64,000 nucleotides of DNA, from NCBI GenBank assembly GCA_965216785.1, contig OZ244197.1:64001-128000 (forward strand), in the 5' to 3' direction. Position 1 is the stretch's first letter. Each line of letters begins with the position of its first letter. The notes under the pieces were generated by a model. That model worked only from the letters and a program-made list of their open reading frames with translations, did not search any database and was not told the origin of the DNA. The translations under genes and the position numbers were made by a program. The DNA comes from Thermodesulfobacteriota bacterium. Lineage in GTDB: Bacteria; Desulfobacterota_D; UBA1144; Nemesobacterales; UBA2774. Positions 9,276 through 33,643 of the stretch are shown piece after piece.

Positions 9276-9392
9276 TGTGTAATATTGCACAACTCTTGAG
9301 CTTTGGAGTCTCCTTTGTGCAAACACTGATTATCTAAGCTGCTGTGATTACAACAAATATTGAAATTTCATATAAGTGGCATATATATTGCA
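9276..9392 (+). promoter_or_regulatory. sigma54 promoter with TGT-N10-ACA upstream activator site
   Basis: TGGCATATATATTGCA (9377-9392; GG-N10-GC) and palindrome TGTGTAATATTGCACA (9276-9291). Confidence 0.7.
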
Positions 9393-10725: not shown

Positions 10726-10841
10726 TGTGTGATTTGACACATTTGAGTGAATCTTATATAATGTTTTTTCACAATACCTGCACTAAGCAATTGATATTAT
10801 TATATATTGCAAAATAACAGTGTCTTGGTACGGAAATTGCT
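10726..10841 (+). promoter_or_regulatory. sigma54 promoter with TGT-N10-ACA site and IHF-like site
   Basis: TGGTACGGAAATTGCT (10826-10841); TGTGTGATTTGACACA (10726-10741); TATCAATTGCTTA on the minus strand at ~10783-10795 matches WATCAA-N4-TTR. Confidence 0.7.
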
Positions 10842-13032: not shown

Positions 13033-13159
13033 TTATAATCTCAGCAATAACTTTAACCAAATACGCTTTATGTGCAAAAGGTAAGCTACAACATAAATCC
13101 AGGGTTATATCGTTTTGACAACCGGATAATTAAATGTATTAGGGAGTTCCAAGAGGAAA

Positions 13160-13207
13160 TGGTCGGGGTGGCCGGACTTGAACCGGCGGCCTCTGCGTCC
13201 CGAACGC
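13160..13207 (-). repeat. Displaced 3' half of tRNA-Pro (outer att site of element A)
   Basis: 48 bp identical to 33273-33320 and 45803-45850. Confidence 0.95.
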
Positions 13208-13323
13208 GTAGGGACAAAAAGTCCTAAACGTTTGATATAACTATAAGTTCCTGAATATATTCGAATAAAAGAGATTAACCACAATTCTAATATATCGATT
13301 GTTTAGAATGTTTTGATTTAGTA

Positions 13324-13343
13324 TAGACACCTATTTGGACACC
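13324..13343 (+). repeat. Integrase arm-type repeat, element A left end
   Basis: TAGACACCTATTTGGACACC, matched by TGGACACCTATTTAGACACC at 33183-33202. Confidence 0.7.
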
Positions 13344-13480
13344 TAATCGACTGAATATGCAGAGTGGGTCAAACCTCACCAAACATAGCGCCGACAACTA
13401 TTATTGATTGGTATATCTTTGGTTCAATGTTTATGCTTGGCATCTTTGCATTTATACATGCTTAATTTTATCTCAATCGA

Positions 13481-14437
13481 CTATTTCTTATTTACCTGTA
13501 GAAACCCGATATTTTGGTGCTTATCAAAAGACATAATGATATTATCAATATCATATTTGGGAATATCGCTCGTACAATCTAACAATTCAAACTGATCACG
13601 ACCAATGAGTTCCCAATCCATAAAGCTTTCCATATAACCTATTTCTCTCATTTCTGGTAGAACATTTGTAATTAATAGCACACCTTGCGGCGATAGTTTC
13701 TGAAATAGTTTGTGAGTAAGCTTTTGTGCTGTTCTTTGTTTCAAATAATCATATAACCCTGAAGCATAAATTAAGTCATATCCTGAATGCTTGAAATTGT
13801 TTCTCAAAATATCGACAACAGAGACAGCACTAGCCTGGACACTACTACCAGAGTAATTTCTGTTCACGTAGTTAACACTTTCTATGTCCTGGTCTATTGC
13901 AGTGTATTCTTCTATTTCATCATTTCTAAAAGATTCAGATAGTTCAATCTCTCTTAGATGACCGCACCCTATCGACAGAACTTTTGTCTTATCGGTAGCA
14001 CGGGCAACGCTGTCTATGACTCTAGCAATATATTGCCTCCGAAGGCGTACGGAATCACATGCAGTCGTATTGAAAGTGTATTCTCGGATTTCGTTACCGA
14101 GTTCGTTAACACCATCAAAATTCACACTTGGATGTCCATATATCATATCCAATAGGTATGCATCTCCAGCATATCCCCTGGGCTTATTGTAAGCCCTCTC
14201 TGTTATAGGGTCTTGATATATAAATTCTTTTATAGGATGGTCCATTAGATAATTCCCTACGATATATTTCCACTCACCTACAGAGCAATTTAGCTTTAGA
14301 TGTCTTAACCCGGCGTAAAAATTATCTAGCGCCTCAGTAATTTTACTATTATTTATTTGATTGTATGCTTCCTCTAGTAGACAAGACGTAAAGTCATCAC
14401 TATATATTTTCCGGGCTAAATTATTTTGTGTCATCAT
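13481..14437 (-). CDS. Class I SAM-dependent methyltransferase, PhcB-like
   Basis: KPRGYAGD, VLSIGCGHLRE, DQD, YDLIYASGLYDYL and MESFMDWELIGR motifs. Confidence 0.75.
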   Translation of the reverse strand: MMTQNNLARKIYSDDFTSCLLEEAYNQINNSKITEALDNFYAGLRHLKLNCSVGEWKYIVGNYLMDHPIKEFIYQDPITERAYNKPRGYAGDAYLLDMIYGHPSVNFDGVNELGNEIREYTFNTTACDSVRLRRQYIARVIDSVARATDKTKVLSIGCGHLREIELSESFRNDEIEEYTAIDQDIESVNYVNRNYSGSSVQASAVSVVDILRNNFKHSGYDLIYASGLYDYLKQRTAQKLTHKLFQKLSPQGVLLITNVLPEMREIGYMESFMDWELIGRDQFELLDCTSDIPKYDIDNIIMSFDKHQNIGFLQVNKK

Positions 14438-14469
14438 TCTCTCCTTTTAGATTATGGTTTCAAGTAGCT

Positions 14470-14652
14470 TTATGAGATTTCAATATTTCCAACTACATCC
14501 TTTAACTGTGATCCGTCCTCATGGGTGTATAAAATGTAAAGGGATACTTCTTTCACCCTCTCCTCTTCGGACTCTTCTGAACTTGCGGCATTAGCCGTCT
14601 TCTCCAGAAATGCTTTCACAACTGCTAAATCTGATTGCTCTATTATCATCAT
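14470..14652 (-). CDS. Small hypothetical protein (~60 aa), first gene of the sigma54 operon with the methyltransferase
   Basis: AAGGAGGT RBS before ATG 14652; lies directly downstream of a -24/-12 promoter. Confidence 0.55.
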   Translation of the reverse strand: MMIIEQSDLAVVKAFLEKTANAASSEESEEERVKEVSLYILYTHEDGSQLKDVVGNIEIS

Positions 14653-14689
14653 GACTAAGACCTCCTTTTTCATTATGTGACTTTATAAA

Positions 14690-14865
14690 TGCAACCGGTA
14701 TGCCAAATATATAACTCTCCTTCATCATTAAGTTTTCTAAATTTCAATCTTGTCGGCATGTAAACTACGTTTACATATCGTAAACTCCGTATACATATCA
14801 GTGATTCACACACACTAACTTATTTAATGATTAAAGAGGCTTACGTTTTTGGCATTCTGATTGCT
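14690..14865. promoter_or_regulatory. Two divergent sigma54 promoters sharing a central tandem enhancer
   Basis: TGGCATACCGGTTGCA (minus, 14690-14705); TGGCATTCTGATTGCT (plus, 14850-14865); TGTAAAC-N3-GTTTACA boxes at 14759-14775 and 14779-14795. Confidence 0.85.
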
Positions 14866-14900
14866 CTTTAAGGATATAGAACTTTAAGGAGGTAGTTAAA

Positions 14901-15695
14901 ATGAGGATATTGATATTTCTGAGTGTTTTATTTAGCGGTTTATACTTTTCACAGGATGTAACTGCCGAGGGTATAGTATTCTGCCAGAGTAAAATCTTTA
15001 AAGTCGTAAGATACAGGGGCGGCGAGCCCGGAAGCTGTAAACGATTTGAAAATGAGATTGTTATAACTACCGAAATCGGTGAGGCTGGACCTCCCGGGCC
15101 TCAGGGACTAGCTGGACCTGCAGGACCTCAAGGTGATCCTGGACCGGATGGACCAGCCGGACCTGAGGGGCCACAAGGACCGGCAGGACCTATGGGAGAT
15201 GTCGGACCGGAGGGCCCACCAGGTGATATAGACCAAGGTCTTTTGGATGATCTTCAGGAACAAATTGATATTCTAGCAAGTAAGGCATGTGGAGATGGAG
15301 AATTAGATATAATTTTTGGTGAAGAGTGTGATGATGGAAACGAATTAGACCAAGACAGTTGTTCATCTGATTGCTTAATCACAGGCCCAAGTGGTCCTTT
15401 TTGCGGTAATAGAACAATTGAAGATCCTGAAGTATGTGATGCCGATATAATTCTGACTAGTTGTATAGACTTGGGATTTGTAACAGGAGACCTAAGATGT
15501 TCGGACGACTGCCTATCTTTTGATACATCAGGTTGTCTTGACTCAGTATGCGGCAATAACAACCAGGAAAGTGGTGAAGTTTGTGATGGAACAGATTTGG
15601 TTGGTATAGATTGTACTGACTTTGGATTCACAGGAGGTTCCTTAGCATGCGGTTTTGACTGTGTTAGTTTTAATACATCTAATTGTTCTAATTGA
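14901..15695 (+). CDS. Secreted collagen-like protein with Myxococcus-type cysteine-rich (DUF4215-like) repeats
   Basis: Signal peptide, Gly-X-Y run, [11 protein letters not shown] and two CGN...E.CD...C..LGF..G.L.C repeats. Confidence 0.8.
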
Positions 15696-15783
15696 ATAAA
15701 GATGTCTCTGACGAATTAGGTTGTTTTATCTTGAATCTTTATAATTTATTGTCAATACTAGGTTAATTATGATTTCATAGATT

Positions 15784-18700
15784 TTGAAAGGAGTATGTTC
15801 TTTGGAGTGTTCAGCTTGTAAATCTGCAATCACATCAGGTGAAAAATTCTGCGGCAATTGCGGAAAGAAAGTAGGGGTTGAGTGTCAGAGCTGCGGCAAT
15901 GAAAATCCCCTTAAGAACAAGTTCTGCTCAGAATGCGGCAGCAAACTGAGTAACGGAACTGTATCTAAACCTGAGAGCTTCTCAAAAGATATTCCTGTAC
16001 AGCTTGCCAGAAAGGTGATAGAAGAAAAAGCACATCTTGAAGGCGAGCGTAAACAGATAACGGTCCTATTTGCGGACATATCAAATTTTACAGCATTATC
16101 CGAGAAGCTCGATCCGGAGGACGTAAAGAACCTAGTGGACGGATGCGCCAAGCTTATCATTCAGGATATTTACCACTATGAGGGTACGGTAGACAAATTT
16201 ACAGGCGATGGTGTTATAGCCCTATTCGGCGCTCCAATTTCACTAGAAGATCATGCAGCCCGTGCATTGAGCTCAGCGATTAAAATCCAGGAATCTGTGA
16301 AGGAATACAGCCGTAAAATAAAGAGCGAATTTGGGTATGAATTAGAAATGAGGATCGGGATAAATACAGGGCTCGTTGTGGTGGGGAGTATAGGGAACGA
16401 CCTTAGCATGGATTATACGGCTATGGGCGATACGATTAACCTCACTTCGAGACTCGAATCGTTTGCTGAACCCGGCACAATTCTGGTCAGCGAAAATACT
16501 CAAAGGTTAGTGAGTGACAGATTCAGTTTCGGTCCGGGCGAAGAATACCGAGTAAAAGGAAAAAAATCGGCCGTAACAGCTTACAAGGTATTAGATACGA
16601 AAGAGGATGTAACGCTTCGCGACTTTCAGACTGAAGGTAGACTGACCAGATTCGTCGGGAGAAAAAGAGAGATAAATACCCTCACTGATAGAATCGACCT
16701 GGCAAAGGAAAGCCAGGGGCAGATTATCTCCGTTATAGGGGAGGCTGGACTTGGGAAAACCCGCCTTATCCATGAGCTTAGAGACTTATTAGGAAATGAA
16801 GACCTTAGATGGGTAGAAGGCAAGAGCCTGTCTTATGGCAAGTCGATACCATATTTCCCTATCATTAACCTGCTGAAAAGTTTTTTTAGGATCGAGTCTG
16901 ATTATAGCGAGCGGGTAACTAAAAATAAAATCGAGAAGGAAATCAGAGAGATTGACTCAGATTTATTGTGGACTCTTCCATTCTTATACAGCCTGTTATC
17001 AATCGGCCCCTCCGATAAGAGTATTGAGCAAATGCACGAACGGGAGATAAGGAGGAAGAGCTACGAGGCTGTTAATTCCATCTTCCAGAGACAGAGCAGA
17101 AAGCAGCCGCTACTTTTAGTAGTCGAAAACCTCCACTGGGTGGACAGCGCTTCAGAGGAGCTTATAAATCACATTGTGCACAATATCGCCAGAAGCAGAA
17201 TTATAATACTGGTCTCAACCCGTCCGGGACATTTACATCTGTTTTCCGATAAATCCTACTATACTCAGATAATTCTAAGCCCCCTTTCAGACGCCGATTG
17301 CGAATCTATGATCAAGCAGATCCTGAAAACTCAAGACGTGTCGCGGGACTTACAGGATTTAATTTTGAACAAATGCGAAGGAAACCCATTGTATCTGGAA
17401 GAGGTCGTTAAGGATCTATTAGAGCAGGGCGCTATAAAGGTATCCATGGGAAAAAGCTCTCTCAGTAAAAAGGGCCATGAACTGGCAGTCCCGGGGACGA
17501 TACTTAGTATTATAATGAGCCGGGTGGACAGATTAGATGAGAACCTTAAAAATACGCTCCAGTGCGCCTCCGTGATAGGGAGAGAGTTTTCGTTCCCTCT
17601 ACTGAACGGCATTACAGGCGGCGGCATAGAATTACATGAAGACCTTGAAAAACTGAAAGAACTTGAGCTGATATACGACAAAGGACCCTCACCTGAGCCT
17701 GAATACTTGTTTAAGCACGCGCTCACTCAGGAAGCCACCTACAACAGCCTTCTCTTCGGTAGAAGAAAAGACCTTCACCTATCAATCGGGAAGCTACTCG
17801 AGAACACACATAAAAACAGGCTCGAAGAATATTATGAGACCCTGGCTTACCACTTCTATCACGGTGAAGACGTAGAGAAGTCTTTAGAATATATGACTCT
17901 AGCTGGAGACAAGGCTTTCAGGCTCCACTCTACTAGAGAGGCCATGGAGTTCTACCAAAAAGCTATTGAGCTCATTATTAAGCAGCCTGAAACCGAGGAA
18001 AATAAATCAAAAAGAGCAAACCTTACCATAAAGCTGACAAGGGTGCTCAGATTTTTCGAATCCCCTAAAAATATACTAGAAATGCTCAAAAGCATTGAGG
18101 ATATTGCTGATACACTCGAAGACTATAATCTAAGGTCCAGAATAATGTCTCTGATCGGTTTATTTACTGTGCTATTGGCTAAGAATCAGGAAGCCGGAAT
18201 CCCCTATTGTGAGAAGAGTATCGAGATCGCGAGCACTTTGAAAGATGAAAAAATCACATCACTGGCGTTCTATAGCCTCACAATGGCCTACTATTTTACA
18301 AGAGGAAAAAACGAAGGAGCCGACCTTTTCAAAAAAGCTTACAAAATTTCAAATAATGCCGGAGATTATTTTGAGGCGAGTCATATTCTGCTGCTCCATG
18401 GTATTTCACTTTGGCATTGGGGAGACTATGAGAAAGCCCAACAATACATAAAGAATTCTCGGGACTACGCTGAAAAAAGAAAAGCTCCTACAATGGCTGC
18501 ACACAGTTATTGCGCACATGGGGGTTACGGGGTGTTTTATGGAAACTTCACACAAAACTACGTCGACGACTGTAAAAAAGCGATGCAAATGTTTAAAGAA
18601 TTAGACGACGTGTACTACTATCTTATAGTTTCAGGCTGTTACTGGTACGGAGTTTACAAAACGACAGGGAATAAAGAAGCGGTTAAAAATCTCGAGGAGA

Positions 18701-19155
18701 CAATAAAGAAAAAAGAAGAAAATGATATGTGGATATGGCAGCCGATGCTTTATTCATATTTAGCTGAAGCATACTGTGATTTAGGTATTGAAAGGGAAGC
18801 GCTCGCATCATGTAAAAAATCGATAGAAATAGCAGAGGGAGCCGGGAACAAATTAGAAGCAGGCAGAGGCAGGATCGCCTTAGGAAAATATTATATAGAT
18901 AAACAAAATCGAGACTTGAAAAAGGCGGAAGTGAGTTTTAAAGAAAGTGTTGAAAACTTTGATGTTATTGAAGCAAATTCGGGCCTTTGTATGAGTTATT
19001 TCAATCTCGGTGCACTTTATAAAGAACAGAAAAACTATAAAGAAGCAAAAGCTTATCTTTCTAAAACTATACCGATGGCTAAAAAAGCGGGGTTATGGTG
19101 GTATTTACGGAGCTCAGAACTCCTCTTAAACGATATAAAGGAAAGCACATCATAA
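15784..19155 (+). CDS. Double zinc ribbon - class III adenylyl cyclase - STAND NTPase - TPR protein
   Basis: CxxC x4; VLFADI, DKFTGDG, TAMGDTINLTSRL; FVGR, GEAGLGKT, ENLHWVD, GNPLYL; TPR-like tail (start may be TTG 15802). Confidence 0.9.
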   Translation: MKGVCSLECSACKSAITSGEKFCGNCGKKVGVECQSCGNENPLKNKFCSECGSKLSNGTVSKPESFSKDIPVQLARKVIEEKAHLEGERKQITVLFADISNFTALSEKLDPEDVKNLVDGCAKLIIQDIYHYEGTVDKFTGDGVIALFGAPISLEDHAARALSSAIKIQESVKEYSRKIKSEFGYELEMRIGINTGLVVVGSIGNDLSMDYTAMGDTINLTSRLESFAEPGTILVSENTQRLVSDRFSFGPGEEYRVKGKKSAVTAYKVLDTKEDVTLRDFQTEGRLTRFVGRKREINTLTDRIDLAKESQGQIISVIGEAGLGKTRLIHELRDLLGNEDLRWVEGKSLSYGKSIPYFPIINLLKSFFRIESDYSERVTKNKIEKEIREIDSDLLWTLPFLYSLLSIGPSDKSIEQMHEREIRRKSYEAVNSIFQRQSRKQPLLLVVENLHWVDSASEELINHIVHNIARSRIIILVSTRPGHLHLFSDKSYYTQIILSPLSDADCESMIKQILKTQDVSRDLQDLILNKCEGNPLYLEEVVKDLLEQGAIKVSMGKSSLSKKGHELAVPGTILSIIMSRVDRLDENLKNTLQCASVIGREFSFPLLNGITGGGIELHEDLEKLKELELIYDKGPSPEPEYLFKHALTQEATYNSLLFGRRKDLHLSIGKLLENTHKNRLEEYYETLAYHFYHGEDVEKSLEYMTLAGDKAFRLHSTREAMEFYQKAIELIIKQPETEENKSKRANLTIKLTRVLRFFESPKNILEMLKSIEDIADTLEDYNLRSRIMSLIGLFTVLLAKNQEAGIPYCEKSIEIASTLKDEKITSLAFYSLTMAYYFTRGKNEGADLFKKAYKISNNAGDYFEASHILLLHGISLWHWGDYEKAQQYIKNSRDYAEKRKAPTMAAHSYCAHGGYGVFYGNFTQNYVDDCKKAMQMFKELDDVYYYLIVSGCYWYGVYKTTGNKEAVKNLEETIKKKEENDMWIWQPMLYSYLAEAYCDLGIEREALASCKKSIEIAEGAGNKLEAGRGRIALGKYYIDKQNRDLKKAEVSFKESVENFDVIEANSGLCMSYFNLGALYKEQKNYKEAKAYLSKTIPMAKKAGLWWYLRSSELLLNDIKESTS

Positions 19156-19187
19156 TTGACAATTTACTCATGGATAGAAGGTGAACT

Positions 19188-19937
19188 ATGGCATTTGAAG
19201 AAATAGAGAATAAAGTTGTTCTAATAACAGGGGGCTCGGAAGGTATAGGATTTGGGATTGCAAGAACTTTCGTCAATGCCGGTGCTAGAGTAGCTATCAC
19301 AGGACGAAATATAAATAAATTGGACAAAGCCAAAGAGCTTCTTGGAAATGATGTATTTTCGATTAATGCAGATGTTGCTCAAACCGAAAATTCCGCTGCC
19401 ACTATTGAGAGAGTTGTCAGCGAATTTGGGAGATTGGACATACTAATTAACAACGCCGGAGAGGGGAATCAAAAACCGTTATCTAAATGCGATATTAACG
19501 ACTATGACTTTGTTTTTAATACGAACGTAAGGGGGTTATTCGCTCTGACTCAGGCCGCAACCCCTGAGCTTAAAAAAACAAGTGGGAATATCATAATAAT
19601 AGCTTCGTCACTCGGTTTAAGACCGGCGCCCATGTACGGGGTCTATTCGGCTTCCAAAGCAGCTGTTATCATGTTCGCTCAGATGTGGGCTAAGGAACTT
19701 GCTCCGGACGTAAGAGTCAATTCGATAAGCCCCGGCGGTGTAGATACACCGTTATGGGACAAGCTGGTTGGTAAGGAAAAAAAGGAAGATGTTCTCAGCT
19801 TTGTCAAAGAACGTCATCTGGTAAAAAAGCTCGGCAGCCCGGATGAGATCGGAGGAGCGGCTCTTTACCTTGCTACTGAAGACTGGGTAACCGGAAGTAA
19901 TTTGGTGATAGACGGCGGTCTTTTCTATTCGATATGA
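19188..19937 (+). CDS. Short-chain dehydrogenase/reductase
   Basis: TGGSEGIG, NNAG and YSASK motifs. Confidence 0.92.
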   Translation: MAFEEIENKVVLITGGSEGIGFGIARTFVNAGARVAITGRNINKLDKAKELLGNDVFSINADVAQTENSAATIERVVSEFGRLDILINNAGEGNQKPLSKCDINDYDFVFNTNVRGLFALTQAATPELKKTSGNIIIIASSLGLRPAPMYGVYSASKAAVIMFAQMWAKELAPDVRVNSISPGGVDTPLWDKLVGKEKKEDVLSFVKERHLVKKLGSPDEIGGAALYLATEDWVTGSNLVIDGGLFYSI

Positions 19938-20097
19938 CTCTAAAATTCACGAATTAGAATCCCAAATTAGCTTCACTTTTCTTCAACTGTAAACATCCAT
20001 TACAGTTAAAATAACTATTTTCTGTTGTTAAGTTCCTTAAATCTCCCAAATTTTAAGTATATATTCAAATTCCAAGATTCACCCTCCTGGCAATCTC

Positions 20098-20170
20098 TGT
20101 AAGCAGGGTTGACACTTCTGTCAAATTATTCAATGTTTTCAGATGTTTAGAATTTGGCACACTGCTTGCA
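20098..20170 (+). promoter_or_regulatory. sigma54 promoter with enhancer box
   Basis: TGGCACACTGCTTGCA (20155-20170); TGTAAGC-AGG-GTTGACA (20098-20114); a further box at 19988-20004. Confidence 0.8.
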
Positions 20171-20207
20171 AAAATATTAAATCAAAAATCACTTGGAGGT
20201 GATCGAT

Positions 20208-20549
20208 ATGATAGTAGTTCAGATTATTAACTTTAACTTAAGCGGTATGAGTGAGACGGAGTATGAGCAGACCTGTGATAATTTAGCCGGCTCATTCGCT
20301 GAGGTTCCAGGACTTCTGGCCAAATACTGGCTATCTGACCGGGCCAATAACAGTTACGGCGGGGTGTATTTATGGGAAGACCGTACGTCGCTTGAGCGTT
20401 TTACCCGCTCAGAGCTTTTTAATAGTGTTGCCACTCATCCCAATCTGGTAAACATCTCTTCACAGGTATTCGATGTGCTGGAGGGCCCTACCCGAGTTAC
20501 AAGGGGCTTTGACGCTGTAAGCGCAATTGAAAAAGCCCGTGCGGTTTAA
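20208..20549 (+). CDS. YdhR-family putative monooxygenase
   Basis: VPGLLAKYWL...YGGVYLWED motif; GGAGGT RBS. Confidence 0.8.
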   Translation: MIVVQIINFNLSGMSETEYEQTCDNLAGSFAEVPGLLAKYWLSDRANNSYGGVYLWEDRTSLERFTRSELFNSVATHPNLVNISSQVFDVLEGPTRVTRGFDAVSAIEKARAV

Positions 20550-20576
20550 GTACAAAAAACTCAAGGAGGTGTACAA

Positions 20577-20852
20577 ATGAAATTTATAGCGGTCCATCCA
20601 CTAAATAGTCCTATAAGAGAGGACCAGATTACCGACGCAGCCAGAGCGTGCAGGGCGGAGAACAGTAACAACGCCTGCTGGATAGACAGCTGGACCCAGC
20701 TTAACGACGAAGGAGAGATCACAGTTATCTATTGTCAGTACGACGCAAAGGACGCAGAATCCGTAGCAGATCTTCTTAAAAAGGGAGCACCAGACCTTCC
20801 GGTCGAGGGTATATACCTTATGGGTAAGCTCGAAGCAGAAAATTACAGGTAA
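20577..20852 (+). CDS. DUF4242/SCO4226-like small protein
   Basis: W..SW....G....YCQYDA pattern; paralog of 23707-23988. Confidence 0.6.
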   Translation: MKFIAVHPLNSPIREDQITDAARACRAENSNNACWIDSWTQLNDEGEITVIYCQYDAKDAESVADLLKKGAPDLPVEGIYLMGKLEAENYR

Positions 20853-20861
20853 AAACAGTTC

Positions 20862-20892
20862 GGGCGTTAGGTACGTATTGTATCCAACGCCC
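20862..20892 (+). terminator. Hairpin after the DUF4242 gene
   Basis: GGGCGTTAGGTAC...GTATCCAACGCCC. Confidence 0.5.
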
Positions 20893-20963
20893 TTATACCT
20901 GGGCGAGAAAGTGTCTTGAATTAAGAAAATCTAAAGTGATATAATGTCTTAGGGGAGGTTGAC

Positions 20964-23624
20964 ATGCAGCGTTCCGCGGTAGAAAAAAATAAGATCATCG
21001 GCTCAAGCGCAAAGCTTTCTGAGGTCGTGGACTTAATTTTGAAAATCGCCGATACACCGACCAACATACTTATCACTGGTGAAAGCGGCACAGGAAAGGA
21101 GCTTGCCGCAAGTCTACTGCATGAAAAGAGCAGCCGCTCAGATAAACCTTTTATGGACATCAATTGTGCGGCTATACCCGAGACGCTTCTGGAGAGTGAG
21201 CTCTTCGGTATTGAAAAAGGGGTCGCGACGGGGGTTGAGAGAAGAGAGGGTAAAATCGAGCTATCCGCAGGGGGGAGCCTTTTCCTTGACGAAATAGGCG
21301 ACATGAGCCTCGGCGCTCAGGCAAAGCTGCTCAGGGTCCTTCAGGAAAGGAGCCTTAAAAGAGTAGGCGGCAAAAGCGACATCGCCGTTGACCTGAGGAT
21401 AATCGCAGCCACGAACAAAGACCTTCTTTCGGAGATAAAAAAGGGGAAATTCAGAGAGGATCTTTATTACAGGATCAACGAAGTACATATTAAGATGCCT
21501 TCCCTGAGGGAAATACGTGAGGATATACCCAGTTTGTCCGAGCATTTTCTTCATTCACTCTGTCATGAGCTCAATATGAATACACTCCGGTTTAGTGATT
21601 CAGTCCTGGACCGACTATCGAGCTACAGCTGGCCCGGAAACATCAGAGAGCTTAAAAACGAGGTTAAAAGGGCAGCGCTCCTGGCCGATGGCCATATAAT
21701 AGAAGAAAGAGATTTATCTCCAGATATTTTGAATTTCTTTAAAAACAAGGATGCCAGTCAAGGTCTTGTAAGTGAAGCAACTTCGCTACCTCGAGCAGTA
21801 GAAGAGCTCGAAATCCAGATGATAAAGCAAGCCCTAAAATCATGTCAGGGAAACAGGGTAAAGGCCTCTCAGATGCTTGGAATATCAAGGCAGGGACTAA
21901 TAAAAAAGATAAGCAGATACAGGATAGATCAGGGTAGCTCTCAGAAAAAGAAAATTTCAGACCGATTGCTCAAGTCAAGCAAAAGATCGTTTGTCGGAAG
22001 AGCAAATGAGATTAAAGAAATAAAGGATCTAATCAAGTCCAAGAAGTCTACTTACTATGTCTTATTTATTCACGGCATAGGAGGGATTGGGAAGACAAGT
22101 ATGGTTAAGGAACTTTTAAATTCCTTGGACGCTAAGGTTAGTACAATTTACCTTGATTGTAGAGACATAGAGCCGACGGAGAACGGTTTTCTAACATCGC
22201 TGGGTAATGAACTTAATCTCAAGAGCACCAGAATTACAGTAGAGCGTGTTTTAAAGAGTTTGGAGAAGAGAAAGGAAAGAACACTACTGGTACTCGACAC
22301 CTATGAGACTTTCGGACTTATGGATACCTGGCTCAGAAAGACTTTTATACCATCTCTACCTGAGAATTTTCTTACAATAATCATCGGAAGACACCCGCCA
22401 AATAATTCATGGTTTACAAGCTCAGGCCTTGGGACTCTTATTAAGAGTATTGAGCTTGAGGAGCTTTCTTATGAGGACGCGATCAACTTCTTAATACTCC
22501 GTGGGCTTACGTCAGAAGAAGCAGAAAAGACCTATTCATTCGCCCGGGGGCACCCGATGGCTCTTGAGCTAGCAGCAAATTCGGTATCATCAAAACCCAC
22601 TCGAGACATTTCATACAAATCATTCCCTAACATTATTCATCAGCTGACGCAGGATTTCCTGCTGGGTCTAGATAAGAAGACCAGAAAGACGCTCGAGAGC
22701 CTCTCTTTAGTGAGGCGCTATGACGACACCCTACTGAAACACTTACTAAACGAAGACTACGAAGAAGGTATCTTTGACAATCTCTTAGAGCTCCCATTCG
22801 TCAGCCTAACAGGAGAAGGATGCTTGATACACGATATAGTAAGGGAAACTATAGCTCGTGAGCTATCACTCCGTGATCCGAAGAGGTATAAGGATTCGAA
22901 AAAAGCCGCATGGGTATATCTGAATGAACAATCGCTTGCGAAGCACGGTGAATCACTCTGGCAAGCTACTGCCGATTTGCTATACACTATAGAAAACCCG
23001 GTTGTAAGGGATGCTTTCTTTCCTAAAGGTGCAATGGGTTATGTCGTCGAGCCACTATCTCATGAGGATAAAGAGCATGTAATTGATATTGTGCGTGAGT
23101 CCGAATCGGGTGAACCTGCCGATATAATTGAGAACTGGCTCACATATTATCCGGGCAGTTTCAGTGTTGTTAAAGATATAACCGGTGAAGTTGAGGCGTT
23201 CTTTATTTTATGCGAGCCTAATGAGATCGATAGGAGCCCTTTATCTGAGGATAAAATACTCGACGTTTGGTTTAAGCACTTGGAATCTAATCCTCTAGAT
23301 TCCACAGACAAAGCGCTATTTCTAAGGAGGTGGCTCAGTAGAGGACATGGTGAAGGTCTTTGTCCTGCACAAGGAGCTTCATGGCTCGACGTTAAGAGAA
23401 ACTACATGGAGCTTAGACCTAAATTAAAAAGGCTTTATACAACACTGACTGATTTAGAAAACTATAAGCCTGTCGTATTACCGTTAGGTTTTTCTCTTTT
23501 AGATAGTTCAGAGATTGAGCTCGAAGAAACAACTTACTATTCCGCCATTATTGATTTCGGACCGGACAGCGTCGACGGATGGCTCAGAAAACTTATCGGT
23601 CTTGAGCTTGGTATTGGTCAGTAA
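20964..23624 (+). CDS. sigma54 activator (AAA+ and Fis-HTH) fused to a STAND-type NTPase and C-terminal sensor-like domain
   Basis: GESGTGKE, ESELFGIEKGVATGV, FLDEIG, WPGNIRELKN, HTH LGISRQGL; then FVGR, GIGGIGKT, LLVLDTYE, GHPMALEL. Confidence 0.85.
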   Translation: MQRSAVEKNKIIGSSAKLSEVVDLILKIADTPTNILITGESGTGKELAASLLHEKSSRSDKPFMDINCAAIPETLLESELFGIEKGVATGVERREGKIELSAGGSLFLDEIGDMSLGAQAKLLRVLQERSLKRVGGKSDIAVDLRIIAATNKDLLSEIKKGKFREDLYYRINEVHIKMPSLREIREDIPSLSEHFLHSLCHELNMNTLRFSDSVLDRLSSYSWPGNIRELKNEVKRAALLADGHIIEERDLSPDILNFFKNKDASQGLVSEATSLPRAVEELEIQMIKQALKSCQGNRVKASQMLGISRQGLIKKISRYRIDQGSSQKKKISDRLLKSSKRSFVGRANEIKEIKDLIKSKKSTYYVLFIHGIGGIGKTSMVKELLNSLDAKVSTIYLDCRDIEPTENGFLTSLGNELNLKSTRITVERVLKSLEKRKERTLLVLDTYETFGLMDTWLRKTFIPSLPENFLTIIIGRHPPNNSWFTSSGLGTLIKSIELEELSYEDAINFLILRGLTSEEAEKTYSFARGHPMALELAANSVSSKPTRDISYKSFPNIIHQLTQDFLLGLDKKTRKTLESLSLVRRYDDTLLKHLLNEDYEEGIFDNLLELPFVSLTGEGCLIHDIVRETIARELSLRDPKRYKDSKKAAWVYLNEQSLAKHGESLWQATADLLYTIENPVVRDAFFPKGAMGYVVEPLSHEDKEHVIDIVRESESGEPADIIENWLTYYPGSFSVVKDITGEVEAFFILCEPNEIDRSPLSEDKILDVWFKHLESNPLDSTDKALFLRRWLSRGHGEGLCPAQGASWLDVKRNYMELRPKLKRLYTTLTDLENYKPVVLPLGFSLLDSSEIELEETTYYSAIIDFGPDSVDGWLRKLIGLELGIGQ

Positions 23625-23653
23625 AATTAATCTAATTTATTATTGGATTAAGC

Positions 23654-23697
23654 AATTAGGGTATAGCGTGTAATTCTCAGCACGCAATACCCTAATT
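23654..23697. terminator. Bidirectional hairpin between convergent genes
   Basis: AATTAGGGTATAGCGTG...CACGCAATACCCTAATT. Confidence 0.6.
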
Positions 23698-23706
23698 GTT
23701 AAATTA

Positions 23707-23988
23707 CTACCTGTAATCTTCACCATATACCTCGGCTATCTGAAAGATACCATCAGATGGCGGCAGCTCTGGTACGGATGATGAGAGGGTCGCGTGAATG
23801 GAATTAACATCTTTACTGTCCCACTCACAAAAAACTCTCGACACTTTTCCGTCATCAGTCAACTGAAGCCAGCTCCTGACCCAGTAAGCATCAGTGCTGA
23901 GGTTGGCCTTGCACTTTTGTGCAATCGGCACAACGTCCTCGCCGTTTACTGGTGGGTTAACCGGGTGAATAGCTATATATCTAGGCAT
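23707..23988 (-). CDS. DUF4242/SCO4226-like small protein
   Basis: Alignable to 20577-20852 (IAxHP, WxxSW, FCEWD, E.YR). Confidence 0.6.
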   Translation of the reverse strand: MPRYIAIHPVNPPVNGEDVVPIAQKCKANLSTDAYWVRSWLQLTDDGKVSRVFCEWDSKDVNSIHATLSSSVPELPPSDGIFQIAEVYGEDYR

Positions 23989-24030
23989 ATACTTATACCT
24001 CCTATTAGGATTTAATAATTTAGATTTCGA

Positions 24031-25134
24031 TCAATACCGAGACATAATATTCTCATGAAAACTATTCATAGCTTTTATAGGATCAGGCACAGGGGCTATC
24101 ATTATCTGATTTATACCCTGTGACTCCATCCTTTTAATCGTGTCGATGATCTCGCTGCTGGTTCCAACGAGAACTGATGCTTCTATCATCTCCGGCGTGA
24201 GCACATCGTTAAATTCCTCGTTCCAGAAAAAATAGTTACTGTAGTAGGCAAGGTGTCTTCTTTCGGGGTTGTCCAGGTCTGAAGGATACGCGTTTGTGAA
24301 TTTCATGACCCCGTCCCTTAAGCTCTCAGGAAGCGGCTCGCCCGGAGTTGTACCTGTGTTTTTCCCGTGGTTTTCAAGTGACTTCGCGAGTATATTCAGA
24401 CATACAGAGACCATAGGTCCCAGCTGATGTCTGACTGATTCAGTTTCAAGAGATTCGCCTTCATCCAGAATATAAAAAGCGCTAAGAACCATGGTATATA
24501 TGTCCTCAGGGTTTCTTCCTGATTTCTTCGCGCCCTTTCTGATTCGCTCCATACAATAATCTATGTACTCCTCGTCTATCGCCCCAAGAAGCATTACACC
24601 GTCCGCAAGCTCTCCGGCAAGCTCAAGAGTCTTTGGTCCGCTTCCGGCCATAAATATTGGTATTTCGTCTTTGGTATTTATAAAGCCCATATCTGGACTC
24701 AGGAATTTAACAGGTCTCTTCCTCTCCTGAGATAAATACTTATCCGGGCCTTCACTGTATTCCGCCTCTTCACCCTTGAGCATTTTTCTATATATGCCAA
24801 CGTCATTCCGAAGCTCATCAAGCTTAGCTATCGGCATACCCCAGGCCCGTCTCGCGGTGTTACCGGTACCGATCCCGAGAACACACCTGCCGGGCGCAAG
24901 CTCGTTTAGAGTAGCCATGGCTCTTGCGGTAACTGGAGTCATCCTGGCGCGCGGGCATGTGACGCCAGGGCCAAGCTTTATTTTTTTTGTATTGGTGGCG
25001 CAAAGGGTTAACGTTTCAAAAACATCGCTCCCTATGCTGTCATACGGCATAAAATGTGTGAACCCCTTATCTTCGCCATGGGCCACCCATTGCCATGAAT
25101 GTATATGTGAGGGAAAATGCAATCCAAAGTCCAT
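24031..25134 (-). CDS. LLM-class flavin/F420-dependent oxidoreductase
   Basis: TKKIKLGPGVT, APGRCVLGIGTG and AGSGPKTLELAGELADG motifs. Confidence 0.88.
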   Translation of the reverse strand: MDFGLHFPSHIHSWQWVAHGEDKGFTHFMPYDSIGSDVFETLTLCATNTKKIKLGPGVTCPRARMTPVTARAMATLNELAPGRCVLGIGTGNTARRAWGMPIAKLDELRNDVGIYRKMLKGEEAEYSEGPDKYLSQERKRPVKFLSPDMGFINTKDEIPIFMAGSGPKTLELAGELADGVMLLGAIDEEYIDYCMERIRKGAKKSGRNPEDIYTMVLSAFYILDEGESLETESVRHQLGPMVSVCLNILAKSLENHGKNTGTTPGEPLPESLRDGVMKFTNAYPSDLDNPERRHLAYYSNYFFWNEEFNDVLTPEMIEASVLVGTSSEIIDTIKRMESQGINQIMIAPVPDPIKAMNSFHENIMSRY

Positions 25135-25180
25135 TTTTTAGCACCTCCAAGATTTCTTTTCAACTTCTGTGAATATTATT

Positions 25181-25286
25181 TGCAAGGTGTGTGCCAAATC
25201 TATAACTAGCTGATATCGTTAGATTATATTCTCTAACTTGTCGGAAATACGTAAACTAAATTTACGTATTGTTAACTAGATTTACT
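25181..25286 (-). promoter_or_regulatory. sigma54 promoter with tandem enhancer
   Basis: TGGCACACACCTTGCA on the minus strand (25181-25196); boxes at 25250-25266 and 25270-25286. Confidence 0.85.
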
Positions 25287-25326
25287 GTCTGTTGGATAGG
25301 GACTGATTCTTGTCCAGAATGGTCTA

Positions 25327-26859
25327 TCAAATGTTGTATCTCTTCATTTTTTTGAAGAGCCCTTGCCTAGTTATATCAAGGAGCTCAGATGCTTTTTGTT
25401 TATTACCCCCGGTTCTAGCAAGGGCGTCTTTAATCATCTTGACCTCTATTTTCTCGACAACGCTCTTAATAGTTTGAGACGCGTCAAATTCCTCTAATGA
25501 TGGTGTACCGTCTTCTCCACTATCTTCTAATATATAGTGAGAAAGGTCTTCTTCTTGAATCACATCTCCTGAAGACATTATAATCGCTCTTTTCATTTCA
25601 TTTTCTAGCTCTCTTACATTACCAGGCCATGTGTATCCTTGAAGTCGCACAAGAGCGTCATTTGACAGACTTAGGGGCTCTCGAGAATATTCTTTAGAGT
25701 ACTTTTGTAAAAAATATTTGGCTAAAGTTTCAATATCTTCTTTAATGTCACTGAGAGAAGGCATTTCAATATGTACTACGTTTAAGCGGTAGAAAAGGTC
25801 CTCACGGAATGAATCTTTTTTGATCGCCTTTTTGAGATCCTTGTTTGTCGCCGCTACAACTCTGATGTCTACGTTAATCTCTTTCTTGCCGCCTAGCCTT
25901 ATAACTTTCCTTTCCTGAAGAGCTCTCAGGAGCTTAGCCTGTGCCGCCAGGCACATATCCCCTATCTCATCGAGGAACAAGGTACCGCCGTTTGCCATCT
26001 CAATCTTTCCTTCCCGTCTATCAACTCCGGTGGCGACACCTTTTTCAATTCCGAAAAGCTCGCTCTCGAGAATTGTGTCAGGTAAAGAGGCACAGTTTAT
26101 ATCAATAAAAGCCTTGTCTGAGCGGAGACTGTTATAGTGAATCATTCTGGCTGCGAGCTCCTTGCCAGTCCCGCTTTCTCCAGTTATCAGAACATCCAAA
26201 GGGCTCGATGCTATTTTTTCAATCAGTCTGACCACTTCAGCAATCTTTGGACTTGTACCCACTAATTCATTTATAAAAAACTTCCCTTCACTCCTTTCTC
26301 TCAGGATTTTGTTTTCGCGCTCCAGGCTTTTCTTTGATCCCTCAAGGTTACGTATGTGCTTTGCGTTTTCGATTGCGACAGCTGCGTTCGAAGCAAAAAT
26401 TTCGAGTATGTCCCTATCATTTGAGGTGAACTTGCCCCCGGTTTTGTTTATGGCTTGGAGAACACCTACCGACCGACCCTGAAAGTTTTTAATCGGAACA
26501 CAGAGTAACGATTTGGTTCGGTATCCCGTGCTTTTATCAATAGCAGGATTGAATTTCTTATTTTTGTAAGCGTTGTCTACAATTACAGATTTTCCTGAAA
26601 CAAATACCTCCCCTGCTATGCCATCATTGGAATCGAAGCGAACTGTCTCATTTGTACCGAGCGCAATCTTAGACCAAAGCTCATCTGTGAAGTCATCGAA
26701 TAGAAAAAGCGTCCCCCTGTCTGCTCCTACGATTTGTGCTGACTCCTGCACAATGAAGTCAAGAAGCAGATCGAGGTCTTTCTCCGCCCTCATCATACTC
26801 CTAAGGTTATAAAGGCTTTGATATTCTGTTTCCTTATTTATCATTTCATTTTTAGACAT
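25327..26859 (-). CDS. GAF - sigma54 AAA+ - Fis-HTH enhancer-binding protein
   Basis: GAF with DKSTGYRTKSLLCVP and INK...F...D; GESGTGKE; GVATGV loop; HTH LDITRQGL. Confidence 0.92.
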   Translation of the reverse strand: MSKNEMINKETEYQSLYNLRSMMRAEKDLDLLLDFIVQESAQIVGADRGTLFLFDDFTDELWSKIALGTNETVRFDSNDGIAGEVFVSGKSVIVDNAYKNKKFNPAIDKSTGYRTKSLLCVPIKNFQGRSVGVLQAINKTGGKFTSNDRDILEIFASNAAVAIENAKHIRNLEGSKKSLERENKILRERSEGKFFINELVGTSPKIAEVVRLIEKIASSPLDVLITGESGTGKELAARMIHYNSLRSDKAFIDINCASLPDTILESELFGIEKGVATGVDRREGKIEMANGGTLFLDEIGDMCLAAQAKLLRALQERKVIRLGGKKEINVDIRVVAATNKDLKKAIKKDSFREDLFYRLNVVHIEMPSLSDIKEDIETLAKYFLQKYSKEYSREPLSLSNDALVRLQGYTWPGNVRELENEMKRAIIMSSGDVIQEEDLSHYILEDSGEDGTPSLEEFDASQTIKSVVEKIEVKMIKDALARTGGNKQKASELLDITRQGLFKKMKRYNI

Positions 26860-26900
26860 TTTTATCTGTTATTCCGAATATAACATATCACTTAATATAA

Positions 26901-27006
26901 CGTCAACATCGTTTACAAATTGTAAACGCTGTCTACATCAATTTTCTTACCAATAGGTATTTATCCAATGATTCATGGTGTTTAGTGTTTTGGCATACGC
27001 TTTGCG
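26901..27006 (+). promoter_or_regulatory. sigma54 promoter with tandem enhancer
   Basis: TGGCATACGCTTTGCG (26991-27006); boxes at 26901-26917 and 26921-26937. Confidence 0.85.
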
Positions 27007-27041
27007 ATTAGTATTCTCAAAACTTTGAGGAGGTAGTAATC

Positions 27042-27617
27042 ATGAGATATACATGTTTAATTTTGAGTGTTGTTTCATTTATGTGGTGTTCAATGTATGT
27101 GGAGGCCCAGGAAGATAAGTTTTTGACAGATGAGGAAATAATAGAACAAAAACTTGTTGAACCTTGGTCCCCTGATGCAGTCGGAAAAACCCAGTTTCAG
27201 AAACTTATGGATGATACTATTCGTAGAACAGTTGCTTGGAAGTTCATGCAACTTACATTACCTGGTACGGGTCAACATGTTACTAATATTAGAAAGAATA
27301 ACGACTACGAATTATGGACTTATGTCTGGAATAACGGAACAGAATTATCTATAAATCCATTACGTGTACGAGTTGTAGGTAAACCCGGGGAAATTAAATT
27401 TTATAGATCTTGTCGTCGACAAAACTTAACAAACAGTAACAGGATAAGTGTTAGTTTTTCAGATTTCCTTCCTGGTCGAACGAAATACCTATCTGTTTGT
27501 TTCCGTGCAATGAAAAATATGTCAGTTGCAAACTTTAGTGTCAAACTAGGATTGTACGGAAAAATAGATCCTATAGGTAGTTCATGGCTTACCATGAATC
27601 CTAGAGTTTCAGAGTAA
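27042..27617 (+). CDS. Secreted hypothetical protein
   Basis: GAGGAGG RBS, signal peptide, downstream of a sigma54 promoter. Confidence 0.7.
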   Translation: MRYTCLILSVVSFMWCSMYVEAQEDKFLTDEEIIEQKLVEPWSPDAVGKTQFQKLMDDTIRRTVAWKFMQLTLPGTGQHVTNIRKNNDYELWTYVWNNGTELSINPLRVRVVGKPGEIKFYRSCRRQNLTNSNRISVSFSDFLPGRTKYLSVCFRAMKNMSVANFSVKLGLYGKIDPIGSSWLTMNPRVSE

Positions 27618-28058: not shown

Positions 28059-28994
28059 ATGAAGCCTTCTATGAAACCTTCTTTTAATCAATTATGCGAG
28101 TGGGAAGAATTAAATAAACAGGGCTTGCTTCCTGAAAACATTAAAATGACGTTTGAGCAGGCACAATATCAAGTGCAACAAGTTATTAATGCTTCAGGTT
28201 TAAGAGAAGCGCTCTCCAAGACAAAATCTCAAATTCAAGAAGTAATAGATACTTCAGGATTGAAAGAAGTGCTCTACGGGGTAAATGCTCAAATGCAAGA
28301 ACTCTATGAAAACATCAAACCATCATTAATACTCCTCGGTGAATTTTACGAACGAAAAAAAGATCATGATGAGAACTATCAAAAAAAATATCCATTAGGT
28401 TATTACTGCTTTAGTAATAAAAGTAGTGATGTATCTTATCGAATACTGAAAGATAAGGTTCGAATGAGAGTAAAAGAATATGGGATATATTTTGATAATA
28501 GAAGGAATTTTAATAGATCCTCTAAAGGTGAATTAGCTGAAACCTTGTTTGAGAATGAATATCTAAAAATTTTTCAAGAAACAAAAGAACTCTATTCACT
28601 ATCTGCAGTCGAGTTTGAGAATGCGGATTTCGGTCTAGATTGTATTAAAAGAATTGATAAGCTTCCTGAAAGAGTACGAAGCAATTTTCGTTATAAACTG
28701 GATAGTTTGAATAAACAACAGTCATTTGAAGAAAATTTAGAGAGAAGATTAGAACTCGAAGCTGAATTGCTTATGTCTGATTCATTAGAACTATCTGAAA
28801 TTATAGAGATTGTAGAAGCAATAGAAAATCTGCCAGATAAACAACAAGAAGCAATAAAGATGTTTTACATTCAGGGGTACACACAAGCAGAAGCGTCACG
28901 ACAATTAGAAATATCAGAACCTAGCTTCAAAGAAAGATTAGATAATGCACACAAAACCCTAAGAAAGAAATTTCAAAATATTTTCGTACAATAA
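28059..28994 (+). CDS. Protein with C-terminal sigma70 region-4-like HTH
   Basis: AIENLPDKQQEAIKMFYIQGYTQAEASRQLEISE..F..RL. Confidence 0.7.
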   Translation: MKPSMKPSFNQLCEWEELNKQGLLPENIKMTFEQAQYQVQQVINASGLREALSKTKSQIQEVIDTSGLKEVLYGVNAQMQELYENIKPSLILLGEFYERKKDHDENYQKKYPLGYYCFSNKSSDVSYRILKDKVRMRVKEYGIYFDNRRNFNRSSKGELAETLFENEYLKIFQETKELYSLSAVEFENADFGLDCIKRIDKLPERVRSNFRYKLDSLNKQQSFEENLERRLELEAELLMSDSLELSEIIEIVEAIENLPDKQQEAIKMFYIQGYTQAEASRQLEISEPSFKERLDNAHKTLRKKFQNIFVQ

Positions 28995-29062: not shown

Positions 29063-29251
29063 ATGATAAATGGCCGCATAGCAATAACTCTCTCTCAGAA
29101 AGGCATAGATACCGTTTCATTTGTTTCAAGTAATAAAGCGGAAGCTCTGAATCTATTTCTGATCATAAAGGAAGAGCTCGAAAATTTTGAAGATAACATC
29201 AAAAAATTGATTGAAAGTCATGAGGTGAAAGAAAATGACTTTAACCAATAG
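29063..29251 (+). CDS. Small hypothetical protein
   Basis: GGAGGT RBS; coupled to the downstream xis. Confidence 0.55.
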   Translation: MINGRIAITLSQKGIDTVSFVSSNKAEALNLFLIIKEELENFEDNIKKLIESHEVKENDFNQ

Positions 29252-29441
29252 AGGTAAGCTTCTTACTCCCAAAAAGGCTAAAGAAACTTATGGTATCGAG
29301 ACTACGAAAATTTATAACTGGATACGTAATCGCCGGTTTACATTCATCAAATTGGATAAGGAGATCTTATTTTGGGAGAAGGACCTATTGGATTTTTTGG
29401 AACAAAATACTAGCTATTCATGTATTGATATTGGTGAGTAA
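29235..29441 (+). CDS. Excisionase-like HTH protein
   Basis: LLTPKKAKETYGI...IYNWI...FIKL..EILF....L..FL pattern of MerR/HTH_17 Xis. Confidence 0.75.
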   Translation: MTLTNRGKLLTPKKAKETYGIETTKIYNWIRNRRFTFIKLDKEILFWEKDLLDFLEQNTSYSCIDIGE

Positions 29442-33370: not shown

Positions 33371-33643
33371 TTGCCTTTATTTATTGAGTAATTCCATAGA
33401 CTAGAGTATATACCTTTTGTGCGTAGTTGAACTTGATTGTGTGAAAGGGGAACTGGGTTACTGACATTTTCACTGACATGTGGGGGGGGGCAGTACACAC
33501 CCTACCCCAGGCGAGCCAAGCTCTACCCGAACGCATATGGGTGGTAAGACTCTCGCCTCGGAACAAATAATCTATGGGTTGTCTATAACAAACTTTAATT
33601 ATAGTCACATATATAAAATCCTATTTTTCTGAGGCAGGTCAAG

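Follow-up and report, generated by a model that had tools for sequence, protein, structure and literature searches.

We analyzed a 64,000-nucleotide stretch of DNA from a Thermodesulfobacteriota bacterium (GenBank assembly GCA_965216785.1, contig OZ244197.1, positions 64,001–128,000 of the forward strand). This whole stretch is referred to as the window, and positions are counted from its first letter. The window carries an element resembling a phage-inducible chromosomal island (PICI), the cargo of which encodes a class III cyclase joined to a STAND module (STAND cyclase) and a GAF-domain activator of the sigma-54 type (GAF activator). We propose that these two proteins form one circuit, in which the STAND cyclase would make cAMP, cAMP would switch on the GAF activator, and the activator would drive a sigma-54 regulon of redox and secreted proteins. 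Judged from sequence, we give this wiring somewhat better than even chances of being correct; it is partly supported by gene neighborhood, phyletic overlap, repeated fusions, a conserved ligand pocket, and a conserved operator. The module occurs generally within part of the host phylum, and the PICI-like element carries it here as cargo.

The GAF activator

The activator gene (25327–26859, minus strand) encodes a GAF domain with a cyclic nucleoside monophosphate (cNMP)-type pocket, an AAA+ domain (PF00158) with a GVATGV loop, and a Fis-type helix-turn-helix (HTH), as assigned from domain matches, structural relatives, and pocket comparison. The GAF motifs read TGYRTKSLLCVP and NKTGGKFTSNDR, which places R149 where the NKFDE motif has its Glu. 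These motifs contain the TGYRT..LCVP and NK..F..D features of cNMP-binding GAF domains that had been noted in a first-pass annotation made from the letters alone. The best solved relative of the domain was CyaB2 (1e-35), followed by PmGH (2e-26) and PDE5/PDE2; the GAF domain of Nlh1 scored 5e-8. The cAMP contacts of CyaB2 are R291, T293, I308, D356, and N359 (PMC4411481). Four of these five are identical in the activator, where R291, T293, I308, and D356 correspond to R48, T50, I65, and D108. The fifth, N359, corresponds to T111, and Thr is also found at this position in CyaB2 GAF-A and PDE5. The contact positions are near-invariant in the best 120 homologues of the activator, the complete set occurs in 0/18 control activators, and the pocket is kept in 64 of the 79 GAF domains from the loci collected.

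The GAFTGA loop of sigma-54 activators is replaced by GVATGV or GVASGV in all 120 best homologues. The activator stays below the curated NCBIfam cut-offs for nifA (373 vs 529), NorR (335 vs 476), and FhlA (273 vs 830). Its AlphaFold model (pLDDT 77, pTM 0.48) matched AAA+ domains only when searched against the PDB. Neither relatives of the two activators of the element nor the GVATGV loop pattern were found in IMG/VR, and plasmids gave no match to the activator at 1e-90. A sigma-70-like promoter of the activator gene (26877–26906, minus strand) has its -35 hexamer within an operator box (described below), and the activator probably represses this promoter; the sigma-70 and terminator scans were at chance level overall.

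The STAND cyclase

The cyclase gene (15784–19155, plus strand) encodes a double zinc ribbon (DZR), a class III cyclase domain (Guanylate_cyc), a STAND ATPase (AAA_16), and tetratricopeptide repeats (TPR). In class III adenylate cyclases, Lys together with Thr/Asp selects adenine, and Asn and Arg are transition-state residues. The metal-binding D98 and D142 are kept, as are K138, T212, N219, and R223, and all six are in register with the structures of CyaB (3r5g) and Cya2. The earlier reading of the metal Asp residues, substrate Lys, and catalytic Asn and Arg as intact (D98, D142, K138, N219, and R223) is thereby borne out. The Walker B motif of the STAND ATPase (residues 448–452) reads ENLHW, not EDLHW, a form common to a subgroup of homologues. 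The cyclase gene is directly followed by a short-chain dehydrogenase/reductase (SDR) gene (19188–19937, plus strand; Pfam), and SDR genes also stand behind the STAND cyclases of four other loci (L107, L232, L239, and L240).

Promoters, operators, and predicted regulon

The sigma-54 pattern matched eight times in the window against 2.42 matches expected, and none of 100 shuffles gave as many. Five of the eight lie in 13481–27617, and rpoN is present in the host genome. The five sites, which are those that the first-pass annotation had listed, are at 14691–14705 (minus strand), 14850–14864 (plus; before the genes of a collagen-like protein, the cyclase, and the SDR), 20155–20169 (plus; before ydhR and a DUF4242 gene), 25182–25196 (minus; before an LLM and a DUF4242 gene), and 26991–27005 (plus; before a secreted-protein gene). 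At four of the five, a palindromic operator (TGTAAAC-N3-GTTTACA) occurs as a pair of boxes about 70 and 90 nt upstream. The pair at 14759–14795 (boxes 14759–14775 and 14779–14795) is common to the two divergent sites at distances of 70/90 and 71/91 nt, and the LLM and secreted-protein promoters have their pairs at 25250–25286 and 26901–26937, again 70 and 90 nt upstream. The ydhR site has instead single operator-like boxes at 19988 and 20098 (19988–20114), 167 and 57 nt upstream. Genome-wide, a box with ≤3 mismatches was found 57–91 nt from 6 of 45 intergenic sigma-54 sites, namely the five of the element and one at a second locus of the host. A scan for integration host factor sites was unconvincing.

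Since the operator consensus was derived from the element, its test has to lie in other loci. With a matrix built from six boxes of the window, a box was detected at 5/23 intergenic sigma-54 sites of the phylum loci and 3/14 of the metagenome loci, compared to 0/29 of the control loci. Upstream of the activator gene itself, the box beat its shuffles (≤3/100) in 16 of 23 phylum rows, and a divergent sigma-54 site was present in 11 of the 23. Where the recognition helix differs, the box beat its shuffles in none of the 20 rows (8 with SHQG, 12 with REG). We infer that the GVATGV activator family binds the TGTAAAC-N3-GTTTACA box, represses itself, and activates outward.

Behind the minus-strand site at 14705, the first gene is a 60-residue open reading frame (ORF; 14470–14652, minus strand) that has a strong ribosome site and belongs to no known family, followed by a class I S-adenosylmethionine methyltransferase gene (13481–14437, minus strand), a predicted regulon member. 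The methyltransferase had been annotated as PhcB-like and as the gene behind this promoter; its place behind the promoter stands, with the 60-residue ORF ahead of it, and the name gained no support from the libraries, which matched it only as a generic class I methyltransferase. Both of its relatives inspected in alphaproteobacteria adjoin GGDEF/EAL genes. The remaining targets are found where the promoters point to them, as had been claimed: a secreted collagen and Cys-rich repeat protein (14901–15695, plus strand; Pfam/NCBIfam), a YdhR-family protein (20193–20549, plus strand) with a DUF4242/SCO4226-like protein (20577–20852, plus strand; both Pfam), an LLM-class flavin oxidoreductase (24031–25134, minus strand; Pfam/NCBIfam) with a second DUF4242/SCO4226-like protein (23707–23988, minus strand; Pfam), and a secreted protein of no known family (27042–27617, plus strand; Pfam/NCBIfam), for which an ESM Atlas search gave nothing above 0.84. 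A terminator-like inverted repeat (23647–23704; repeat pair I14) separates convergent genes.

Across related loci, the targets are likewise SDR, LLM, DUF4242, methyltransferases, and small secreted or collagen proteins. A small secreted protein without Pfam family recurs as the first gene behind the divergent promoter (L009:2031-2300, L098:8583-8927, L107:9371-9670, and L110:1-304). SCO4226 binds nickel (PMC4186839). Two DUF4242–cyclase fusions were seen near activators (L103:4807-5646 and L107:2616-3455), and stand-alone DUF4242 products may tune cyclases. The second subtype of DUF4242 escaped an iterated profile of the family. Elsewhere in the host, a lone DUF4242 gene has its own sigma-54 site and lacks the operator (G000:C1:2135724-2136002). 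Two further sigma-54-like sites of the window without operator (9377–9391 and 10826–10840) precede a host RpoD-type sigma factor gene and a gene for a small acidic secreted protein.

Co-occurrence of activator and cyclase

The co-occurrence of the two genes was investigated in 120 genomes of the host phylum, with a neighborhood of 10 kb and an expectation from uniform placement. The GAF-GVATGV activator was present in 16 genomes and the STAND cyclase in 17, with both in 14. The STAND cyclase lay in the neighborhood of 13 of 21 activator loci (9 genomes), compared to 0.32 expected. In seven of the other eight loci, the flank on one side is shorter than 4 kb; among these seven, one locus adjoins a DUF4242-cyclase gene and another a broken STAND-sensor gene. 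Control loci, built around ordinary activators from a generic peptide-pattern scan (GV loop in 2/80, GAF with GV loop in 0/80), contained any cyclase in 2/80 cases and a STAND cyclase in 0/80. Class III cyclases occurred in 15 of the 16 activator genomes compared to 18 of the 104 others, and the overlap of activator and cyclase within the family of the host gave p = 0.007.

The module occurs a second time in the host genome (G000:C1:2997206-3005159; L013), where a GAF-GVATGV activator is convergent with a STAND cyclase that has Gln for Lys. The operator lies 69 nt from a divergent sigma-54 site, which is followed by genes for two secreted proteins, DUF4242, DUF3237, and an oxidoreductase. The flanks viewed showed no integrase, and related loci in other genomes lie among ordinary chromosomal genes. 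The host has exactly two PF00211 matches, each beside a GAF-GVATGV activator; a membrane protein with a divergent cyclase-like domain (G000:C1:2450379-2451614) is not scored by this model. No Crp HTH above cut-off was found in the host, in a search that was positive in 14/14 controls.

Outside the phylum, a loop-pattern scan of metagenomes gave at least 120 matches, 80 of them with flanks and 58 of those with a GAF domain. In two other phyla, where few candidates were scored, the activator occurred in at least 4/301 and at least 3/151 genomes. Scans of the phylum of G120 (0/17) and the class of G122 (0/151) gave no match at all and are uninformative. Class III cyclases were present elsewhere in the genome in 5/5 outside genomes tested. 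The co-occurrence expected from the first-pass annotation thus holds within the phylum, and elsewhere the activator is mostly without a cyclase neighbor. As the pocket persists beyond the phylum, the cNMP-type reader would be more widespread than its STAND link.

The second activator and STAND fusions

A second sigma-54 activator on the element had also been annotated, and it was confirmed at 20964–23624 (plus strand). Domain matches, alignment, and tree show an AAA+ core (PF00158) with a GVATGV loop and a Fis-type HTH, fused to a STAND-sensor module (STAND domain and C-terminal module); the N-terminal domain, and with it the GAF, is absent. The STAND-sensor module is 48% identical, over 555 residues ungapped, to a protein of genome G042 that continues into a cyclase and is encoded directly behind a GAF activator; the second activator has lost that cyclase. 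Another protein, P0121, has the same architecture as the second activator at 49% identity, and three of the four members of its cluster are full-length. Sequence search found no solved relative of the module. As an input, the module is portable, and the outputs joined to it are interchangeable: winged helix, LytTR, BTAD, Ser/Thr kinase, cyclase, DUF4062, and the sigma-54 core (19/150 of P0121–P0270 scanned).

Three further proteins of 1440–1550 residues (L009:2528-7180, L010:520-4842, and L232:8816-13162) combine a GAF-less activator core with a degenerate cyclase–STAND–TPR part, in which the first Asp is missing in one and the catalytic Arg in two. A different fusion, at L178:7220-9064, adds a cyclase-type zinc ribbon, a membrane helix, and an outer domain to a GAF-less core. 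We built a tree of 29 chosen rows (besides a wider FastTree), and six GAF-less fusions fell in it inside the GAF-bearing clade (99/96). Their placement needs three or more changes, and one common origin was rejected (p-AU 0.0009). STAND modules were thus joined to GAF-less cores on three or more occasions, and the cyclase in these fusions is either degenerate or lost. The joint loss of the GAF domain and decay of the cyclase on fusion fit a diffusible messenger made unnecessary and are compatible with direct contact as well.

Proposed circuit

In the circuit that we favor, a cue would open the STAND-TPR arm of the cyclase, and the triggered cyclase would make cAMP, which likely binds the GAF domain of the activator. 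In turn, the AAA+ ring with its GVATGV loop would activate four sigma-54 promoters by way of the operator pairs upstream. The predicted outputs are the 60-residue protein and the methyltransferase; the collagen-like surface protein, cyclase, and SDR; the LLM and DUF4242 proteins; and the secreted protein. Because the cyclase lies downstream of an operator-linked promoter here and at L107, positive feedback is predicted at these two loci, but not at the second locus of the host. The second activator would be a one-protein short cut, with the STAND sensor wired directly to the AAA+ core and probably driving ydhR-DUF4242. It had been annotated, together with the YdhR and DUF4242 genes, as a link of the circuit; these genes form instead a separate accessory cassette, which is missing in a variant of the element. 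Judged from its targets, the output is perhaps a chemical or redox response, not immunity.

More tentatively, with slightly less than even chances on the genomic pattern, the GAF-GVATGV activators would be the first sigma-54 activator family to be turned on by direct action of a cyclic mononucleotide. In this lineage, they would take the place of CRP. STAND cyclases would supply them within the phylum and other cyclases outside it, and fusion into single STAND-activator proteins, bypassing the messenger, would have happened repeatedly. If the circuit is true, it adds a new class of bacterial cAMP reader, provides a cognate output for many orphan STAND cyclases, and means that sigma-54 can be driven through a GVATGV loop without Phe. 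The natural fusions, in which GAF and cyclase activity vanish together, would show a second messenger edited out of a circuit. A cAMP-gated sigma-54 switch could also serve as a tight, CRP-independent reporter with small, soluble parts.

Alternative explanations

Several observations weigh against the proposed circuit. In the GAF domain, N, K, F, and D of NKFDE are kept and the final Glu, retained in 110 of 120 top homologues, is R149. Among the cyclases, Gln takes the place of the substrate Lys in many family members, the closest orthologue included. The loop lacks the Phe of GAFTGA, and the majority of GAFTGA mutants fail to activate (PMC7175178). The neighborhood figure is inflated by the clustering of genes in islands, and the phyletic overlap is confounded by kinship, as 11 of the 14 shared genomes belong to one family, within which p = 0.08. 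At G049:C101, the activator has nearly full flanks and no cyclase nearby. Outside the phylum, a cyclase or STAND neighbor was found at 5/58 of the metagenome loci listed (three of them host-phylum-like) and at 2/18 of those ≥10 kb, and a cyclase neighbor, without STAND, at 1/7 loci of the two other phyla.

The scarcity of cyclase neighbors beyond the phylum would suit a GAF domain that senses another small molecule, with the cyclase merely a target gene or island neighbor and cAMP acting elsewhere. Here and at L107, the cyclase gene stands behind an operator-linked sigma-54 site, which fits the same explanation, as does PmGH, which carries the same GAF motifs and the ligand of which is not named in the available part of its description (PMC4159591). 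We nevertheless hold this explanation to be unlikely: the pocket is near-invariant across the best homologues, no CRP that could read cAMP was found in the host, the cyclase of the second host locus is convergent and outside the predicted operon, and the outside genomes tested all have class III cyclases elsewhere. Somewhat less probable still is control of the activator by direct contact or co-oligomerization with the STAND protein, where the cyclase domain would be a scaffold and no diffusible messenger would be needed. The three fusions that still retain a degenerate cyclase would be explained in this way, and so would the many free cyclases with Gln for Lys and the second activator, which, if functional, acts with neither a GAF domain nor a cyclase. 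The cyclase of the element is, however, intact, and the GAF domain was lost exactly at the fusions, as expected of a reader for a diffusible product.

That the GVATGV proteins are repressors or sigma-70 regulators at their operators, rather than sigma-54 activators, is suggested by the Phe missing from the loop, by the overlap of the operator with the sigma-70 -35 hexamer, and by many Acidobacteria-type loci where the operator has no divergent sigma-54 site. The fixed 70/90-nt spacing at four promoters here, together with the independent loci L013, L098, and L104, makes this quite improbable, and DVUA0100, which also has GVATGV, is predicted to activate sigma-54 promoters (PMC4641369). We regard as the most improbable of these explanations phage defense along the lines of Pycsar or Avs, where the STAND-TPR part would sense a phage protein and the cyclic nucleotide would drive a defense regulon. 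It would account for the location on an element that is PICI-like and has a weak HEPN ORF, the STAND-TPR architecture, and the matches of PycC models to the cyclase domain; these matches are, however, confined to the generic cyclase domain (PADLOC). No effector nuclease, TIR, or membrane toxin was found among the targets, related loci are accompanied by SDR, LLM, DUF4242, and secreted proteins, and IMG/VR yielded no match to the GVATGV pattern. The immunity analogy drawn in the first-pass annotation is thus unsupported: PADLOC, Pfam, and NCBIfam searches revealed no killing effector beside the cyclase, and none of the observations points to immunity.

The element and its variant

The element is bounded by att repeats at 13154–13207 (left) and 33267–33320 (right; repeat family D5), which correspond to the 3′ end of tRNA-Pro(CGG); a tRNA-Pro(CGG) gene lies at 45803–45880. 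A repeat at 13319–13352 is shared with 33178–33211 (repeat family D11), and these may be integrase arm sites. The backbone genes, all on the plus strand, encode a protein with sigma-70 region 4 (28059–28994), a 68-residue excisionase-like HTH_17 protein (29235–29441), a phage-type replication initiator (29290–30234), two P27-type small terminases (phrog_83; 30368–31218), and a tyrosine integrase (32183–33370). A weak HEPN-like ORF (31438–32115, plus strand; Pfam E 0.002) is below cut-off. The GC content is 0.415 in the cargo and 0.334 in the backbone. The genes listed cover 17,600 of 20,059 bp, and none of them is structural, with tail and holin genes absent.

PICIs have been defined by five core components (bioRxiv 10.1101/2022.09.14.508007). 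An integrase with att repeats and a small terminase are present. A primase-replicase (the Rep is of phage type, without primase/helicase) and a capsid morphogenesis gene are absent among the ORFs of the element; Staphylococcus aureus pathogenicity islands likewise have no capsid morphogenesis gene (bioRxiv 10.1101/2022.09.14.508007). For the AlpA, MerR, or Stl regulator, the element shows just the HTH_17 and sigma-70 region 4 proteins. With two of the five components present and two absent, the element is PICI-like, not a PICI. The earlier placement of the system on a phage satellite is upheld to the extent that the element is PICI-like, but the module is not satellite-specific, given its second host copy and its relatives among ordinary chromosomal genes. 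In IMG/VR, just two marginal small terminase matches were obtained.

Run X6, which comes from another study than the near-identical runs, contains a variant of cargo and backbone, with cargo pieces 91–98% alike. This variant joins 19930 to 23656 and lacks the accessory cassette (19931–23655) with its promoter, ydhR, DUF4242, and second activator; in another X6 contig, the HEPN-like ORF is missing along with the larger part of the second small terminase gene. The absence of the cassette leaves a core of methyltransferase, 60-residue ORF, collagen protein, cyclase, SDR, DUF4242, LLM, GAF activator, and secreted protein, and the accessory status of the cassette agrees with its different operator geometry. 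Operators and promoters had none of 9 changes in 471 nt, numbers too small to mean anything, and four of five changes in the 60-residue ORF are at third codon positions. The one contig that covers the whole element terminates within the att repeats, as expected of a circle and an integrated copy alike, and read depth over the element was flat and close to that of another host contig; the run of this contig may itself be the source. The stretch 33267–52000 has further elements stacked at the same tRNA-Pro: one (33320–45800) has an integrase, a DnaB-like protein, and TPR genes, and the next beyond it has a 755-residue polymerase-like ORF, an integrase, and another partial repeat at 51971.

Comparison with known systems

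Like PICI satellites, the element has an integrase at a tRNA att site, a small HTH protein, Rep, and small terminases, and no structural genes. It differs from them in having no primase-helicase and no capsid morphogenesis gene, and in its 14.5 kb of signaling cargo; no match to AlpA, MerR, or Stl was obtained. This cargo shares with Pycsar and Avs a class III cyclase and a STAND with TPR, but no killing effector was found, the Lys/Thr selector is of purine type, and the output is transcriptional. STAND and cyclase domains are known from conflict systems, and a link to sigma-54 is not shown in the available part of that work (PMC7159879).

STAND cyclases include the SWACOS clade. Together with the TOMM kinase/cyclase model TIGR03903, they share the cyclase–STAND–TPR architecture of 15784–19155, and a paired cNMP reader was not found described in the literature searched. 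This search, which covered titles and the starts of abstracts and left most subscription journals and supplements outside, likewise found no description of a cAMP-binding GAF sigma-54 activator or of its pairing with a STAND cyclase; the first-pass annotation, too, knew of no equivalent.

The GAF clade and pocket residues of the activator are shared with CyaB2 (Anabaena), GacB (Myxococcus), Lcd1 (Leptospira), and PDE2/5/10 (PMC4411481; bioRxiv 10.1101/600031), so that cAMP-binding GAF domains borne by enzymes are already known (bioRxiv 10.1101/600031). The outputs of these proteins are cyclases, GGDEF enzymes, and phosphodiesterases, whereas the GAF domain of the element is coupled to an AAA+ sigma-54 activator. 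The GAF–AAA+–HTH architecture is that of NifA, NorR, FhlA, and Aquifex Nlh1; the activator is set apart from them by scores below family cut-offs, a GAF domain much nearer to CyaB2 than to Nlh1, and the GVATGV loop. To our knowledge, the known ligands of these four are not cyclic nucleotides. DVUA0100 of Desulfovibrio vulgaris, an activator for type III secretion genes, has the same GVATGV loop and is predicted to act on sigma-54 promoters, but its N-terminal region is of unknown domain, its regulon is that of type III secretion, and the available part of its description mentions no cyclase (PMC4641369).

In adenylate cyclase–CRP/Clr circuits, a cyclase makes cAMP, which is read by a transcription factor. 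The reader of those circuits is a cNMP_binding–HTH protein working with sigma-70, whereas the predicted reader here is a GAF–AAA+ protein working with sigma-54 in a host where the Crp HTH search was negative. The proposed circuit is a variant of this cyclase–cAMP–transcription factor logic with an apparently undescribed reader.

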